This document shows, piece by piece, positions 2,557-33,705 of a stretch of DNA of 34,611 nt. The stretch is from a virus. A program made the position numbers and the translations under genes. A model generated the notes under the pieces. That model had not been told where the DNA came from and searched no databases. It was given only the letters and a program-made list of their open reading frames with translations. The stretch lies in UHGV virus genome UHGV-0165227; one strand, 5' to 3'. Position 1 is the first letter of the stretch. Each line of letters opens with the position of its first letter.

Positions 2557-4676
2557 CTGTCACTAGCGAGCCATGTAATAATCCCCGTGCGGGCAATGGT
2601 TTTTGCTTCATCTGTTGATAAGGTTTTCTCCCATCTCTTAAATGCCCCAGATTGCATCAGTTTCCTTTCTATTACGCGTCTCACTTCTGCTCTGTCTACT
2701 GGTGCGTTTTGCAGGCGAAATAGCATTGATTTAAACTCAGGAGAAGACAGTAGAGCATCAGCAGCCTTTATCCTGCTTGTTTTCCCTGACATCAATGCTG
2801 ACGTTATCACCCCTGTTGCACCTACACCAGGAAGACCAGATAAGCTTGTAATACCTTCCGCCGCAGCAGCTTTTGAGGCTATTCCATAAATTTTTGCGAG
2901 ACTACCCTTTTCTTTCAGAAAGTTATTAACTTGCTGATCCACAAGGCTGCTAGCATACTGCTTACCAGTATTGAGTCTATTCATAGCCTTGGCTGCTTGA
3001 TAAATCGTATCAAGGCGCTTTGATGCATCTGTGCCAATAGCATCACGGAGAGCCTTCATATTGGCCCCATTGCGTGACATTCCGTTATACCATTTTACAA
3101 ATCCATCAACCCCTAATTGCTGGCCTGGTGATTTAGCATAGCTGGTAAATGCTTTATTCATTGAGGTGAGCGCAACTTCCTGCCGCATATCCTTTGGAAT
3201 TGACTTCATTAATTGCCTAAAGTCACCACCGTTTCCTTTTGCCATATTAACAACGGCACTTTCAACTTTTGGAATTGCTGATTGCTGAAGTTTTCTACCC
3301 AAAACGGTTACGGCATCATCTTCAATGGATTTTCGTGTTTTTACCAACTCCTTACCAAGCGTCCATAACTCCCCTGCGCCATATTTTTCTGCGACAGCCT
3401 GTTGGTCATCTGTTATAGCCGCATATAACTTTTTAAGAACACCTGTTTCTTCATCCTTGAATGGGCCAGAGCCTTTGCCAATAGCTTGCCCAACCTGCTT
3501 TCTAGCGAGATCTAAACGCCCATACGTTGGCAAGGTGTTTGGATCAAGTCGGTTCAATGTCCGCTTCATTATTGGAGATAATTCATCAATTCCACCTATA
3601 TCATCAGCAAAATCCTCTAAAAAATTCAATGTATTAGTTGCCTCAATCCGGTCTCTTACAGGAACCTTTTCGGCAATTTTGTTGTAGATGTTATCTGACT
3701 GATTTTGTAATGATGAAATGGTTTTATCAAAATTATCTGCAAGCCTGTCAGAAACCAGTTGCTTATCAAGGCTTCCCCCAAATGAAGTTATCATTTCATC
3801 AGCTTTTCTTCCTAATTCAGTAATAAAACGCTTATGCGCCTCACTAATCTCTGTTCCAGGGAGACTTGCCACTGCATTATCAAGAGCCCTGACAGCAGGA
3901 TTATTAGAGATCATGCCTGGAGTGGCATAATTTTCCAGTTCTAGCTCACGAATAGCATTTATCGCGTTAAAATCAGGATTAACTTCATCGGCGAAATCTT
4001 GAATAGCTCGTTGCCCGCCGATAAATTTATTGTCCATTGCGCCAGCAGCTTTCTTTAACGTTGCTTTAGATGATTTACTACCCATCCCTACGGATGAGCG
4101 ATAAATATCTCCGGCACTATTTTTAATTTTTCCTGCAATCTTCCCAAGCGCTGGACCAACAATCTCTGCTACAGGGCCAGCCACAGCGCCAATAGCAGCT
4201 CCAGAAGCAACATCGCTATTTGTTCCATTGGCTACAATAGCCCCTTCTCCAGCACCAAGCCCTGCGGCGGCAGCCAGCCTTGCCGCCCCTTTCGGAACCT
4301 GAGAAATAATCCCACCACCACTAACAAATGGCGCTGCTTGTCCAACAAACTCACCAACATCTTGTGCGGTTGATGGTTTTGCCGCTAACTTCTGCTGTAG
4401 AGACTGAATTGCGGCTTGCTCTTCTGGTGTCATATCCTGAAACAGGCCAACACCTTTACCAACATCCATCAATCCACTGAGAACGCCATACATAAAACGG
4501 TCGAAACCGTTAGCATTATTAACAACATTTTCCTGTCTGGAATTTTCCTCTGGCGAAACCAAAGGTGATTGCTGCTGTTCTGGTTGGGCATCAAGCACAA
4601 AACCATCAGGAAGCTGTGAGTTATCAGGCTGATTATCGAGAACAAAGCCTTCGGGTAAACCTACATCGGTTGCCAT
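2553..4676 (-). CDS. Ejection (injection) protein, P22 gp16-like
   Basis: Last gene of the ejection-protein trio by synteny (gp7, gp20, gp16); 707 aa, Gly/Ala-rich. Confidence 0.7.
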
Positions 4677-18968: not shown

Positions 18969-19481
18969 TTAAACGGTATGATATTTCATTCTGGCTGCCT
19001 CAAAAGCCGCAGCGGCAAGTTCGGCAGTGTCATGGTATCCAAGGTTAATACACTTTCCAGACGCATTAATTCTTGCTCTCCATTTCCCGTACTTAGCATC
19101 CCAAGACACGCCACGGTATCCAGATTTATTATTCTTCTGAATTTTCCTGTTTTGCATATTTTCGGAATGAGTGACAAGACGAAGATTTGATATCCGGTTA
19201 TCTGTTCTTACCCTGTTGATGTGATCAATAAAACCATCGGGCATGGTGCCATAAACAATCAACCATGCCAGTCTGTGAGCAGGGTATGCTTTACCATTAA
19301 TCATAATCATTAAATACCCATCAGAATTTATTGATGAGCATTTCTTGAAAGCAAAACGAGAGTTCCATGTCAAAGTGGTCCTCTCTCTCCCCTGCCTCCA
19401 TCTCCAGTGAAAGTCGCCTGACGATGGATTGTAATCAACAACAGAAAGCACCATTTCTGGCGTTAATTTTATTTCTTTCAT
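18969..19481 (-). CDS. HNH homing endonuclease with AP2-type DNA-binding domain
   Basis: HNH motif DHINRVRTDNRISNLRLVTHSENMQN and AP2-like GYRGVSWDAKYGKWRARI; AAGGT RBS; sits between tR'-like terminator and late leader. Confidence 0.8.
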   Translation of the reverse strand: MKEIKLTPEMVLSVVDYNPSSGDFHWRWRQGRERTTLTWNSRFAFKKCSSINSDGYLMIMINGKAYPAHRLAWLIVYGTMPDGFIDHINRVRTDNRISNLRLVTHSENMQNRKIQKNNKSGYRGVSWDAKYGKWRARINASGKCINLGYHDTAELAAAAFEAARMKYHTV

Positions 19482-19668: not shown

Positions 19669-19698
19669 ATTATGGCTAAATGGCTAATTGCATGTCAA
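19669..19698 (-). promoter_or_regulatory. Candidate late promoter pR' overlapping the 3' end of Q
   Basis: Minus-strand TTGACA (19698..19693), 18-nt spacer, CATAAT (19674..19669). Confidence 0.5.
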
Positions 19699-20194
19699 GG
19701 TTTTTAACAGCAACATGCTTAACTTTCTCAACACGTTTACGCATTTTGAAAGCATTTTGCATTGGCTGGTACAAAACAAATAATGACGCTTTCAGGATGT
19801 CGTCAATTTCGTTTCTACAGGTTGCCAGTGAAGGTTTTCTCCATCCCTCGCCACCACGTCCACACATCTTGCGTGGCTTTGCAGTCGCGTGATAGTAGGA
19901 TGCAATTGCTCGCTTAGATGAACCATGAGCGTAGTAGCTGAGGAGGATGCCAAAGGCTTTCTTGTCAATGTACATGACGGAATCGACGACCTGAGAAATC
20001 AACATTCCATCATCATCATTGCACATTGGCCTTGTCATAACTCTTCCCGGCTCTACGCTCTCCATGAACTTCGCTATTACGCTGCTCATGCGCTTTTCCA
20101 GACGACCTGAATAAACCCATGCGCCCCACAGTTCAAGCCAGCCATTCAGCCACTCATGCTGTTCTTTGGTGAGGTTTAGTTCTCTTATGCCCAC
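19676..20194 (-). CDS. Q: Late-gene antiterminator Q (Phage_antitermQ family)
   Basis: LELWGAW...RPMCNDDD...LLSYY pattern as in DLP12 QuuD-type Q; GTG start with GGGAGAAGG RBS; directly upstream of late promoter. Confidence 0.7.
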
Positions 20195-20856: not shown

Positions 20857-21040
20857 CTCTTTCACTCCATCCGCGATGAACCATGAGAACGTCGTTGACG
20901 ATGGCGTGCATTTTCCCGTCTTTATCATCAACGTATTTTCTGACCGTACCGCGACTACATTTCAGTCTGCGTGCTACTTCTGTCTGGTTTCCGTATGCTT
21001 CAACGAGCATGTCTGGAATGGTTTTTACTGAGAACGTCAT
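20834..21040 (-). CDS. ninH: NinH
   Basis: 68 aa, sequence recalled as lambda NinH; overlaps phosphatase start. Confidence 0.7.
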
Positions 21041-21648
21041 GCGGCCTCACTTCTGCTGTTTCGCAGGTCTTTGAGTTTCTGCTGATACTCCGCCTTGATG
21101 GCCCTGCACTCTTCGACAGTCCAGCGATGGCGGTTATGGTTTGATTCGATTTCGTCTACTGCTTCCTGCCCGATGCGGCTAATCAGTTCGACGCGATACG
21201 GAACGAGATTCCCGCTTTTGTGCTGGTTGCACACCACGCATTGCTTGTGAATATTGCGTTCATCAAATCGGAGTTGAGGTGCCGCAGCAGTTGTCCGGTA
21301 ATGTCCGGCATCCCACTGAGCAGACGTGAGCGTTCCGCACGAGATACATGGTAAGTCGCGGTCTCTTTCTCTGATGAAGGCGTTTACGGCTTGTTGGGCT
21401 TGTTTAATCCAGTAACTGCGTGGCTTTAAGGCGAGTTTTCGAATCTTAAGTTTATCTTTCTGTTTCTGCTCCTCTCGTCGTCGTTTCTTCTCTGCTGCTT
21501 TTTCCGCTTTTTCGCGTTCTTTGCTTCGTCGTTCGAGTGCTATCTTGGTTCCACACTCTGGAGAGCACCACCACTGATTAGCGAATGCAGGGTGAAACCA
21601 TTCCCGACATTCTTCGTTTTTACATCGTCTTCGCGCTGGTTTAGCCAT
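21037..21648 (-). CDS. ninG: NinG (Rap) recombination protein
   Basis: Cys-rich N-terminus, basic Lys/Arg/Glu stretch, 203 aa as in lambda NinG. Confidence 0.85.
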
Positions 21649-30374: not shown

Positions 30375-31082
30375 ATGGATTTGAATAAATTCGATGAGCC
30401 ATTCAGCCCTGAAGATATCGAATGGCGAATACAGCAAAGCGGTAAAACACGCGATGGCAAGGTGTGGGCTATGGTGCTGGCTTATGTCACGAACCGGGCA
30501 ATCATGAAACGCCTTGACGATGTTTGTGGCAAAGCAGGATGGCGCAATGAATACCGCGATATTCCCAACAACGGCGGCGTTGAATGCGGCATATCAATCA
30601 AGATTGATTCCGAATGGGTAACCAAATGGGATGCTGCTGAAAACACGCAGGTAGAAGCCGTCAAAGGTGGTCGTTCCGGTGCAATGAAGCGCGCTGCTGT
30701 TCAGTGGGGAATCGGTCGGTATCTGTATAACCTTGAGGAAGGTTTCGCACAAACATCTCTCGATAAAAAGCAGGGATGGCACAGGGCAAAACTCAAGGAT
30801 GGAACAGGATTTTACTGGCTCCCTCCATCGCTGCCGGGATGGGCAATCCCAGCATCAGATAACAAACCATCACCAGAAAATACCAACCAGAAATCTCCAT
30901 CGGTTGACTGCGAGCAAATCCTGAAAGACTTCAGCGATTATGCGTCAACAGAAACTGACAAGAAAAAACTCATCGAGCGTTATCAGCGTGACTGGCAATT
31001 AATGGCTGGCAACGAGGAGGCGCAGGCTAAATGCGTTCAGGTAATGAACATCAGAGTTAACGAACTAAAACAGGCGGCATAA
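30375..31082 (+). CDS. Rad52-family single-strand annealing protein
   Basis: GGRSGAMKRAAVQWGIGRYLYNL and upstream GW...EY pattern resemble Rad52 N-terminal domain; GAGGTGA RBS; adjacent to ssb. Confidence 0.55.
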   Translation: MDLNKFDEPFSPEDIEWRIQQSGKTRDGKVWAMVLAYVTNRAIMKRLDDVCGKAGWRNEYRDIPNNGGVECGISIKIDSEWVTKWDAAENTQVEAVKGGRSGAMKRAAVQWGIGRYLYNLEEGFAQTSLDKKQGWHRAKLKDGTGFYWLPPSLPGWAIPASDNKPSPENTNQKSPSVDCEQILKDFSDYASTETDKKKLIERYQRDWQLMAGNEEAQAKCVQVMNIRVNELKQAA

Positions 31083-31544
31083 ATGGCAAGCAGAGGCGTA
31101 AATAAGGTGATTATCCTTGGTCGGGTAGGACAAGACCCGGAAGTTCGATACTCACCATCAGGTACAGCGTTCGCTAACCTGACAATAGCCACGTCAGAAC
31201 AATGGCGAGATAAAAATACTGGCGAGCAAAAGGAATTGACTGAATGGCATCGTGTTGCTGTATCCGGGAAACTGGCTGAGGTCGTGGGGCAGTATGTGAA
31301 AAAAGGTGATCAGATTTATTTCGAGGGAATGCTGAGAACCAGAAAGTGGAAAGACCAGTCAGGGCAAGACCGTTACACAACCGAGGTTCATGTCGGAATT
31401 AATGGCGTGATGCAAATGCTTGGCGGCATTGGCGACAGCAAACAACAAGCAGCCAGCAGGCAATCACAGAAGCCACAGCAGCAATCATCACCAGCACAAC
31501 ACAACGAACATCCTATGAACTTCGACGATGAGATCCCATTTTAA
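31083..31544 (+). CDS. ssb: Single-stranded DNA-binding protein
   Basis: OB-fold N-terminus [23 protein letters not shown], Gln-rich linker, acidic tail DDEIPF. Confidence 0.9.
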
Positions 31545-31559
31545 TCATTGGGAGAAAAT

Positions 31560-32027
31560 ATGATCACTTGCAAAAAATGTGGAGAGAATAAACCACCTAA
31601 TGGTTTTTATCCTAGAAATAAGGTGTGCAAGGAATGCACTAAAAAACGAGTAACTGAATATCAAAAAGGAATAGGAAAGCTAATACATAATAATGCTTGT
31701 AAAAAATATAACAAAAGCGAAAAGGGCAAGGTTGCATTAATCAAAGCAAGAGAGAACTATCTGGAATCTCATCGCCAAAGACAGCAAGCAAGATGGTCAG
31801 TCAAACGAGCAATTAAATCTGGTAAGTTATGTAGACCAACAACGTGTCAGAAATGCAACAGCAAATGCCACCCAGACGCTCACCACTGCGATTACAGTAA
31901 ACCTCTTGAAGTGATGTGGCTATGCAAAGCATGTCATGTTGAATGGCACAAGCACAACAAGCCAATATATCCAGACGAGGAACCAGTAACTCTCCCCTTC
32001 CCTCGTCACGCTATTCACGCAATTTAA
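31560..32027 (+). CDS. HNH endonuclease (Cys-rich, zinc-binding)
   Basis: C-terminal HHCDY...LCKACHVEWHKHN HNH motif with paired CxxC; GGGAGA RBS before ATG 31560. Confidence 0.7.
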   Translation: MITCKKCGENKPPNGFYPRNKVCKECTKKRVTEYQKGIGKLIHNNACKKYNKSEKGKVALIKARENYLESHRQRQQARWSVKRAIKSGKLCRPTTCQKCNSKCHPDAHHCDYSKPLEVMWLCKACHVEWHKHNKPIYPDEEPVTLPFPRHAIHAI

Positions 32028-32040
32028 TCAGGAGAAAATC

Positions 32041-32337
32041 ATGCCAGCGCCTCTGTATGGTGCGGATGACGCGCGCCGCTGTTCCGGCAATTCCGTATCG
32101 GAGGTGCTGGATAAATTCAGGAAAAACTACGACCGGATAATGTCGCTACCGCAGGAAACGAAAGAGGAAAAGGAATTTCGCCATTGTATATGGCTTGCAG
32201 AGAAAGAAGAACGCGAGCGAATTTACCAGACATCAATCCGACCATTCCGCAAAGCCACATATACCCACTTCCCTGAATATATCGACCCGCGCCTGCGTAA
32301 TTACCGCTCACGTTATGGCGCTATCAGTAATGACTGA
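32041..32337 (+). CDS. Hypothetical phage protein
   Basis: AGGAG RBS; 98 aa. Confidence 0.45.
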
Positions 32338-33057: not shown

Positions 33058-33705
33058 ATGAATTGCAAATCAATGACCAGAAAATATGCCATCATGATCG
33101 ATGCTGGTTTTTTGCGTGCAAAATTAGGCACAAAAGATAAGCCAATCGATGCGGAAGTAATCAAAGTATTTGTAGAAAAACTAACAAAAAGGCCTGAACT
33201 AGAAGGCATGATTTTGCACCGTGTTTATTATTACGATGCAGAGCCGCTTACCGGAATACAGACGCATCCGATTAGTGGAGAGAAAATTGACTTCTCTGAA
33301 ACAGAAGTTTCTAAAAGAAATAAAGCCATGCTTGATGAGTTGAAAAGAACTCCTTTTTTTGCAGTAAGACTTGGAGAGACAAACTTTCGAGGATGGAAGG
33401 TTGACCCATGGGCATTAAAGAGCAGTGACTCTAAAACTTCTTCCATTAATGCCTACAATGTTAAGCCTAATGTTCAGCAGAAAGGCGTTGATATGCGTAT
33501 TGCGTTAGATATGTCATCAATGTCATTAAAAAAACAGGCAGATATATATGCTTTGGTGACTGGTGATTCAGATTTTGTTCCAATTATAAAATTTGCCAGG
33601 AAAGAAGGCCGACAGATTTTTCTATACACACTGGGACATAGTGTCAAGCAGACGATGTATGAACATTCCGATTTGTTAGTGCCAGATACCATGGATAAAT
33701 TGTGA
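33058..33705 (+). CDS. NYN-domain (PIN-like) predicted ribonuclease
   Basis: NYN signatures: N-terminal YAIMIDAGFL strand and GVDMRIALDM...VTGDSDFVPII; start uncertain (33058 or 33073), no clear SD. Confidence 0.6.
   Translation: MNCKSMTRKYAIMIDAGFLRAKLGTKDKPIDAEVIKVFVEKLTKRPELEGMILHRVYYYDAEPLTGIQTHPISGEKIDFSETEVSKRNKAMLDELKRTPFFAVRLGETNFRGWKVDPWALKSSDSKTSSINAYNVKPNVQQKGVDMRIALDMSSMSLKKQADIYALVTGDSDFVPIIKFARKEGRQIFLYTLGHSVKQTMYEHSDLLVPDTMDKL

Follow-up and report, generated by a model that had tools for sequence, protein, structure and literature searches.

Functional classes of Rec modules have been defined that include an ES18 type, with a nuclease gene, and an HK75 type, without one (PMC12315714). 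In that classification, HNH genes packed in the ES18-type position are regarded as probably legitimate members of the Rec module, with the caution that HNH genes are mobile and their position is therefore a poor guide to function. The present analysis concerns a gene in such a position, here called gene X, of the virus genome UHGV-0165227; the whole stretch of 34,611 nucleotides (nt) that was analysed is referred to as the window. X belongs to the recombination module of the early-left operon in an E. coli prophage of the P22/HK97 kind. The gene order is erf-ssb-X-abc2, so that X sits between the gene for the single-strand-binding protein SSB and the gene for the anti-RecBCD protein Abc2.

Counterparts of X have been annotated in other phages. 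CDS0028 of Escherichia phage Huey, recorded as an "endonuclease", is 99% identical to X at the protein level, and gp26 of Shigella phage Sf6 (NP_958202) is 48% identical (BLASTP 4e-51). Both occupy the same erf-ssb-X-abc2 slot and have the same architecture as X. A literature search found no experimental characterisation of Sf6 gp26 or Huey CDS0028. A third relative, I-KsaII of the staphylococcal Kayvirus phages K, A5W and 812, is 44% identical to X over X residues 50–130 (E 6e-25), a span that covers a helical repeat and the whole CxxC-HH-DY-WLC-CH core of X. I-KsaII differs from X in its N-terminus, which has a double zinc ribbon, and in its context, as it is annotated within a polA intron rather than after ssb. 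Its annotation reads "putative endonuclease" only.

In part, the occurrence of X is routine: lambdoid phages often hold several HNH-type genes, and Sf6 gp26 has been in GenBank since 2004. The original prediction, made from the sequence of the window, had described X as a second HNH endonuclease and had stressed that one prophage carries two. More telling than the nuclease count is that the ssb-abc2 slot is occupied by X in some genomes and not in others, and that the X family is tied to ssb 3′ ends. New here are the polymorphism of the slot, the identity of the X tail with an SSB extension, and the position of the X family behind genes that encode SSB-type tips. A full-text literature search on HNH genes after ssb gave nothing specific, and no description of the tip synteny was found.

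Gene X and its conserved core

Gene X is an ATG-to-TAA open reading frame (ORF) of the + strand, 31560–32027, and encodes 155 amino acids (aa). It is preceded by a ribosome-binding site, GGGAGA, read from the sequence at 31550–31555 (+), 4 nt 5′ of the ATG. The predicted coordinates were exact, and the protein is Cys-rich as had been said, with 12 Cys. The ATG at 31560 is favoured over an upstream TTG at 31548 because relatives of X begin MI(T/S/A)C in the alignment. An ORF arising by chance is excluded, as close homologues reach E 1e-103 and a search with a profile of the X family yields 46,944 cluster representatives at E≤1e-3. X is a secure member of the Sf6 gp26/PHROG 2340 family; the PHROG 2340 "endonuclease" profile matches residues 1–139 at 5.4e-39. 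By tblastn, relatives are present in 532 phage records, mainly those of Vibrio, Staphylococcus, Escherichia, Erwinia and Bacillus phages.

X is a candidate two-zinc, HNH-like (His-Me finger) endonuclease. The N-terminal part (31560–31649, + strand) is a Cys4 zinc ribbon, made of C4, C7, C23 and C26. These Cys residues are found in 281–291 of 297 aligned relatives, and the ribbon is modelled with a predicted local distance difference test score (pLDDT) above 90. Next is a middle region of four helixes, residues 24–87 (31629–31820, +), probably the DNA-recognition part, in which AlphaFold places helixes at 24–36, 38–52, 54–70 and 72–87. The putative catalytic core extends from residue 94 to 132 (31839–31955, +) and is defined by conservation and by a beta-beta-alpha unit predicted in two models. 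The core begins with a CxxC (C96, C99), followed by a strand at 106–109 that ends in H108-H109, a loop with D111-Y112, and a second strand at 118–121 (VMWL). C122-x2-C125 follows, and a helix at 123–132 carries H126 and H130. Family conservation ends at about residue 140, and the C-terminal tail, PVTLPFPRHAIHAI plus the stop codon (31982–32027, +), is disordered (pLDDT below 50). The AlphaFold2 pLDDT is 89.3 for full-length X and 92.4 for residues 76–140.

The core is marked by the motif C-x2-C-x8-HH-x-DY-x5-V-x-WLC-x2-[CH]-H-x3-H, which in X is numbered C96-x2-C99-x8-H108-H109-x-D111-Y112-x5-V118-x-W120-L-C122-x2-[C/H]125-H126-x3-H130. The two strings quoted in the original prediction fall within it, HHCDY being residues 108–112 and LCKACHVEWHKHN residues 121–133. 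The motif is invariant or nearly so in alignments of 27, 52 and 297 relatives. Among the 297, C96, H108, H109 and Y112 are kept without exception, and C99, D111, W120, C122 and H126 are kept in at least 99.7% (H126 in 296); H130 is kept in 277 (93%). Position 125 is C or H in 294 relatives, with H in 59% and C in 40%. Thus, the pair of His residues at the end of predicted strand 1, where the catalytic His of an HNH enzyme is expected, is present in 297/297 relatives; H126 and H130 are on the core helix as expected of metal-binding His or Asn residues; and C96, C99, C122 and residue 125 correspond to a [CxxC]2 structural zinc site. The position equivalent to the N of HNH, 117, is the variable one: D 53%, E 27%, N 6%, S 4% and A 3%. 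The original prediction had named lack of conservation of the motif residues in homologues as the sign of a non-catalytic zinc finger; that sign is absent, as homologues keep these His, Cys, Asp and Tyr residues unchanged.

By analogy with HNH enzymes, a division of labour can be proposed for these parts. The Cys4 ribbon and the four-helix region probably read DNA. The C-terminal core would be held together by the second zinc site, C96, C99, C122 and C125. H109, which closes strand 1, is the candidate general base; the catalytic metal would be bound by D111, H126 and H130.

Small enzymes of similar build are known. HK97 gp74 and N.phiGamma (PMC3592412, Xu and Gupta 2013) are small phage proteins that resemble the predicted architecture of X in having a beta-beta-alpha core flanked by a [CxxC]2 zinc site, and an extra zinc ribbon. 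The gp74 family also includes the C-x2-H-H variant that is present in 59% of the X relatives. On the other hand, the hairpin loop of X is much shorter than that of gp74-type enzymes, and gp74-type genes adjoin terminase genes and cos and match Pfam PF01844, neither of which is true of X. In T4 endonuclease VII (PDB 1EN7/2QNC), the layout CxxC...H-x-D/H...LLCxxC[NH] resembles that of X, and UniProt and phage records give some X relatives the name "Recombination endonuclease VII". The dimer architecture and junction-resolving activity of endonuclease VII are features for which X offers no evidence. Other annotators have labelled relatives of X PacI-like. PacI (PDB 3LDY/3M7K), of His-Me finger group 20, has two zinc sites placed around its beta-beta-alpha-metal site and, with 140–155 aa or so, is close to X in size. 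In place of a catalytic His, it employs a Tyr of the omega loop (PMC5714182). X keeps the HH pair in addition to an invariant loop Tyr, Y112. Membership of X in the PacI group was rejected, since X retains the invariant H108-H109.

Significant structural matches to the model of X were found by Foldseek in BFVD, among predicted structures of viral proteins named "Recombination endonuclease VII" (2.9e-6), "HNHc domain containing" (6.4e-5) and "Restriction endonuclease HNH" (1.1e-3). The motif and the predicted fold make a His-Me finger (HNH-type) nuclease the best reading of X. The HNH identity claimed for X is supported in part, by the conserved motif and the predicted beta-beta-alpha unit, and it does not extend to curated HNH families: a profile search assigns X to the PHROG "endonuclease" family and to none of the Pfam or NCBIfam HNH models. 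X is thus filed as a predicted HNH-like His-Me finger nuclease, not as a demonstrated member of any curated HNH family. Some relatives (P0192, P0079, P0209, P0211 and others) carry the precomputed Pfam accession PF27269.1, and a curated model for the X family or its zinc ribbon may already exist.

The ssb-abc2 slot

Presence or absence in related prophages, suggested earlier as a check, proved informative. The slot was compared among phages and prophages whose flanks are 95–98% identical to the window. In phages HK75 and mEp235, erf-ssb is 98% identical and abc2 95–96% identical to the window, and the segment 31542–31981 is absent. X is therefore present or absent among near-identical genomes, as is expected of a homing gene. 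The slot is empty in HK75; in mEp235 it holds a DnaQ/Rv2179c-like exonuclease gene, and in ES18 an unrelated HNH_3 protein, gp47. X fills it in the window, Huey and Sf6, and two E. coli chromosomes (loci L008 and L009) have both the Sf6 allele of X and the exonuclease gene.

ES18 gp47 (12214–12735 in locus L007) lies 3′ of ssb. It was considered as a homologue of X and ruled out, as it is an HNH_3 protein with no detectable similarity to X. It is a free-standing HNH-type lambdoid gene like the HNH_3-AP2 gene of the window (see below); both match Pfam HNH_3, lack the two zinc sites and are dissimilar to X. Other unrelated HNH_3-type genes are located immediately 5′ of ssb, at 3077–3544 of L011 and 3010–3534 of L014. 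In lambdoid Rec modules, HNH genes seem to gather on either side of ssb, as at a hot spot.

The window allele of X is rare: of 5426 complete E. coli genomes, 10 have it at full length. In about 98 E. coli records only its 3′ third is matched, at 80–90% identity, and the two of these that were examined contain an intact Sf6-type allele. About 300 more match only the last 46 nt of X. In the two examined genomes (NZ_CM149871 and NZ_CP040886), an intact 159-aa ORF of the Sf6 gp26 type, at 1477–1956 of L008 and 1468–1947 of L009, is placed between ssb and a 3′–5′ exonuclease gene and is left unannotated by RefSeq in both. Among the roughly 98 records with the Sf6-type match, all ten that were listed have no annotated feature under the match.

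The window and Sf6 alleles differ in an uneven way. The last 45 residues of Sf6 gp26 are identical to those of X, and its last ~55 residues show only two mismatches. In contrast, the N-terminal 100 residues of X, with the zinc ribbon and the helixes, are a different, AT-rich version. DNA similarity between the window and Sf6 begins only at 31872. The guanine plus cytosine content of codons 1–104 of X is 0.36, compared with 0.47 for the rest of the gene and 0.48–0.50 for ssb and abc2. Because of this AT-richness of the first 104 codons and the late onset of DNA similarity, the presumed DNA-reading half of X is taken to have been swapped.

The shared tail and the ssb-X junction

The 46 nt at 31982–32027, which encode the X tail, are 100% identical to the ssb 3′ ends of the X-less phages HK75 (L005, 1670–1715) and mEp235 (L004, 1670–1715). 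Position 31982 thereby marks the right edge of the presence/absence polymorphism. The SSB of HK75 and mEp235 reads ...DFDDDIPF-APVTLPFPRHAIHAI, that is, it continues for 15 residues past the canonical IPF end, and the last 14 residues of X are identical to this C-terminal extension (extended tail …IPFAPVTLPFPRHAIHAI). A GenBank note on Sf6 mentions 14 residues common to an E. coli SSB. Among the ~300 E. coli records with the tail only, nearly all of those sampled annotate the 46-nt stretch as ssb.

The acidic tip of SSB is thought to need a free C-terminus for the binding of partner proteins. Altered behaviour of the extended SSBs is possible for this reason, and the ~300 E. coli prophage SSBs with 15 residues past IPF may differ from host SSB in partner binding.

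On the other side of the polymorphism, differences are clustered in the last 32 nt of ssb (31510–31541, +), the codons of the acidic tip. This segment is a candidate target or co-conversion tract. Over 1167 nt of erf plus ssb, the window shows 22 mismatches to HK75 and 18 to mEp235, and in either comparison nine of them lie in this segment. At the ssb 3′ end, then, X-plus and X-minus phages differ at 9/32 nt, as opposed to about 1% elsewhere. Most X-linked ssb alleles have the tip MNFDDEIPF or MNFDDSDIPF, and X-less alleles have MDFDDDIPF; exceptions among the X-linked tips are MNFDDDIPF in L017 and MDFDDSDIPF in L029. Host ssb encodes the canonical MDFDDDIPF tip as well.

Two further features of the junction deserve mention. 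The database proteins P0015, P0017 and P0024 are fusions, in which either an N-terminal part of SSB is joined to the catalytic half of X or the DnaQ-like exonuclease is joined to the C-terminal half. They apparently derive from deletions within the ssb-X-exonuclease region of E. coli prophages, and they show that such events recur at this junction. In addition, ssb and X share a reading frame, separated by the TAA and 15 nt, an arrangement also seen in Sf6 and not in L010. Read-through of the single ssb stop codon would yield an SSB-X fusion.

Synteny of the X family with SSB-tip genes

Gene order was examined in the 80 best IMG/VR loci, with X relatives that are 28–99% identical to X, 63 of them full-length. 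The closest homologues, P0005 (77% identity) and P0010 (62%), directly follow ssb. At loci of this kind the annealing protein varies (AAA_24/Sak4, Rad52 or ERF) and the downstream gene is not abc2. An OB-fold SSB gene ends directly 5′ of X on the same strand at 29 of the 80 loci, and none is found elsewhere in the flanks.

The association is wider than the OB fold. A gene whose product bears an SSB-like tip, i.e., an acidic ...[IV]PF end, lies directly 5′ of X at 54/80 loci, including 53 of the 63 with full-length relatives (84%). The products are an OB-fold SSB, a small protein of 80–110 aa, or a protein of 240–290 aa. As a control, all 2075 six-frame ORFs of the loci were searched for the tip pattern; it occurs in 53, and in 52 of these cases the ORF is the one next to X on its upstream side. 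Of the 63 full-length relatives, about 10 have no tip-bearing gene beside them. Tip genes of the non-OB-fold kinds often follow a YqaJ, ERF or RecT gene: at the 49 loci that have no OB-fold SSB match, the long ORFs on the upstream side include YqaJ seven times, ERF twice and RecT once.

The small proteins with SSB-like acidic tips (…DLDF, …SDVPF, …EDIPF) are encoded after YqaJ-type exonuclease genes and directly 5′ of X relatives, at L030 2709–2960, L034 2683–2925, L038 2699–2962, L054 2598–2867 and L079 2669–3004. These 80–110-aa proteins are probably non-canonical single-strand-binding proteins.

The recombination module and other nuclease genes of the prophage

The first gene of the Rec module is erf (30375–31082, +), which encodes a single-strand annealing protein of the Rad52/Erf type (Pfam Rad52_Rad22 5e-26, PHROG 1097). 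The ssb gene follows at 31083–31544 (+), with its TAA at 31542–31544, and encodes a canonical OB-fold SSB that ends ...MNFDDEIPF (Pfam SSB 1.2e-36). The next gene 3′ of X is abc2 (32041–32337, +; Pfam Anti-RecBCD_p2 4.1e-61), which starts at 32041 with its own AGGAGA. Gaps of 15 nt and 13 nt separate X from ssb and abc2, respectively, and no promoter-like or terminator-like site is predicted on the + strand inside erf-ssb-X-abc2. Transcription runs from erf through ssb, X and abc2 and on in the direction of xis and int; phages Huey and Sf6 have the same arrangement. With an anti-RecBCD gene, an SSB gene, an annealing protein gene and a nuclease gene packed among them, the module is of the ES18 type.

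Further on in the same strand are an Ead/Ea22 gene, a gene for an NYN-domain protein, and an excisionase-like ORF. The NYN-domain gene (33058–33705, +; 215 aa; Pfam NYN 1.7e-11), placed between the other two, has weak PADLOC matches, NYN and HEC-09, and could be a nuclease moron.

The HNH-AP2 gene that the original prediction placed in the late leader is real. It is a homing-endonuclease-like gene of 170 aa at 18969–19481 on the − strand (Pfam HNH_3 2.1e-18, AP2 1.6e-8), flanked by the Q antiterminator gene (19676–20194) and the holin gene (18191–18514). A count of two nucleases is nevertheless too low. NinG/Rap, encoded at 21037–21648 (−; Pfam NinG 1.9e-91), is a third His-Me finger nuclease, belonging to group 24 of that superfamily (PMC5714182). 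Thus, the prophage holds three His-Me finger nucleases from three unrelated families, X, HNH_3-AP2 and NinG.

Proposed roles of X

We propose, with a probability of about one half, that X is a free-standing homing-type endonuclease resident at the 3′ ends of phage ssb genes. X would be made only after induction or infection, because it is co-transcribed with erf, ssb and abc2 from the early-left operon. In a mixed infection, the substrate of X would be ssb alleles without the gene, cut within or close to the DNA for the conserved SSB tip (...DDDIPF). Repair of the break from the X-bearing genome would copy X in, and the neighbouring Erf/SSB machinery would be well placed to assist the repair. 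The proposal is based on the intron-encoded relative I-KsaII (within polA according to its record annotation), on a polymorphic slot that is also taken by unrelated HNH genes, and on the foreign base composition of X. The exchange of the recognition half and the clustering of mismatches where ssb meets X point the same way, as do the synteny with tip-encoding genes and the HNH_3 genes that adjoin ssb in L011, L014 and ES18; the rarity of the window allele was likewise counted for homing.

Several observations weigh against this proposal. Pfam and NCBIfam scans gave no HNH model at E≤1 for X or 27 close relatives, and NCBIfam gave no match at all. Among 52 distant relatives, a single one has a weak HNH_5 match (E 0.0019), the other Pfam matches being zinc-ribbon noise. 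Sequence searches of the PDB with X and with two profiles found nothing. Foldseek searches of the PDB with the full-length and domain-only models gave no significant match: the full model matches PacI, an HNH enzyme, best (E 0.41, TM 0.22, not significant), the HNH domain of Cap5 reaches TMq 0.50 at a non-significant E of 1.1, and the domain-only list consists mostly of zinc fingers. By hhalign, neither the comparison of the X family with an HK97 gp74 (PF01844) alignment (probability 1–2%) nor that with T4 endonuclease VII (P 0.12) is significant; the motifs were aligned in the correct order in these comparisons, with P-values of 0.02–0.12 and probabilities of ~1–2%. A literature search found no report of nuclease activity for any member of the X family.

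The slot and the junction can also be read in other ways. An SSB extension similar to that of HK75, SPVGLQYGRHRIYAL, follows IPF in L051, where it is located 5′ of X. As the sole reading, the HK75 state as a simple deletion scar of X was dropped on this account, and the X-less state is either a deletion product or an ancestral empty site. An old recombination breakpoint could by itself account for the clustered mismatches at the junction. The SSB types that take part in the ssb synteny have only the tip peptide in common, which is explained by docking of X on the tip as well as by a DNA target, and tight packing among recombination genes also fits a recombination role (PMC12315714).

Such a role is the main alternative reading, possible if somewhat doubtful. 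X would be a working accessory nuclease of the recombination/replication module, recruited to SSB-coated single-stranded DNA through the SSB C-terminal tip. It would nick or cut forks, D-loops or ends, feeding Erf annealing while Abc2 redirects RecBCD. Host SSB partners provide one model for such an arrangement, and the HNH nuclease Ref of phage P1, which is directed by RecA, provides another. The close packing of X between ssb and abc2, with no internal promoter or terminator predicted, speaks for recruitment, as does the fact that the closest homologues remain right after ssb when the annealing protein and the downstream gene have changed. The proteins encoded ahead of the family fall into three or more SSB size classes with nothing but the ...DIPF tip in common, YqaJ, ERF and RecT are the other upstream neighbours, and ES18-type packed HNH genes are viewed as probable Rec-module members (PMC12315714). 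However, the near-identical phage HK75 manages without X, and an unrelated HNH_3 gene can take its place in the slot. I-KsaII has no SSB context, some ten full-length relatives are not beside a tip-bearing gene, and the same source cautions that HNH mobility weakens position as a guide to function.

An unlikely possibility is that X is a competition or takeover nuclease, one that cuts the host chromosome or the DNA of a co-infecting phage, for instance at host-type ssb tip codons, without homing. Expression of X early, with Kil, Abc2 and other takeover genes, would suit such a function, and so would the contrast between the canonical MDFDDDIPF encoded by X-minus phages and the MNFDD(E/SD)IPF variants of most X-linked alleles. 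But the PADLOC defence models give X no match, nothing ties X to exclusion phenotypes, and the sequence signatures predicted are the same as those of homing, so that competition is not specifically favoured.

Finally, it is very improbable that X is a non-catalytic zinc-finger protein, DNA-binding or regulatory, that resembles the HNH motif, as might be read from the lack of a significant match to a curated HNH profile or solved HNH structure, from the zinc fingers among the domain-only Foldseek matches, and from a canonical Asn position that holds D, E or N with some S and A: the invariant residues go beyond the four zinc ligands to the HNH active-site positions H108, H109, D111, Y112, H126 and H130, relatives are named HNHc or endonuclease VII in UniProt and one of 52 matches HNH_5, and inactive His-Me finger derivatives characteristically lack the catalytic His (PMC5714182), which X keeps.

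Implications

The X family is very large and has no match to the curated HNH models used, so that annotation pipelines miss members, as the unannotated E. coli copies illustrate. The ssb-tip synteny and the extended SSB tails are worth following. The strict position of X behind SSB-tip codons offers a concrete homing target or else a new SSB partner.

A broader suggestion, which we make tentatively, is that the whole X family is specialised on the SSB C-terminal tip, either as a homing lineage that targets the tip codons or as an HNH nuclease that docks on the tip itself. Specialisation of this sort would explain why 84% of the full-length relatives are directly behind a tip-encoding gene, and it would explain the 15-residue, tip-burying extension of SSB in X-less E. 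coli prophages. If the homing version is true, X would belong to the first homing-endonuclease lineage with the DNA of ...DDDIPF-stop as its conserved target, a lineage that could jump between phages with unrelated SSB folds. If the docking version is true, X would be an SSB-directed counterpart of Ref, the RecA-directed nuclease of phage P1.

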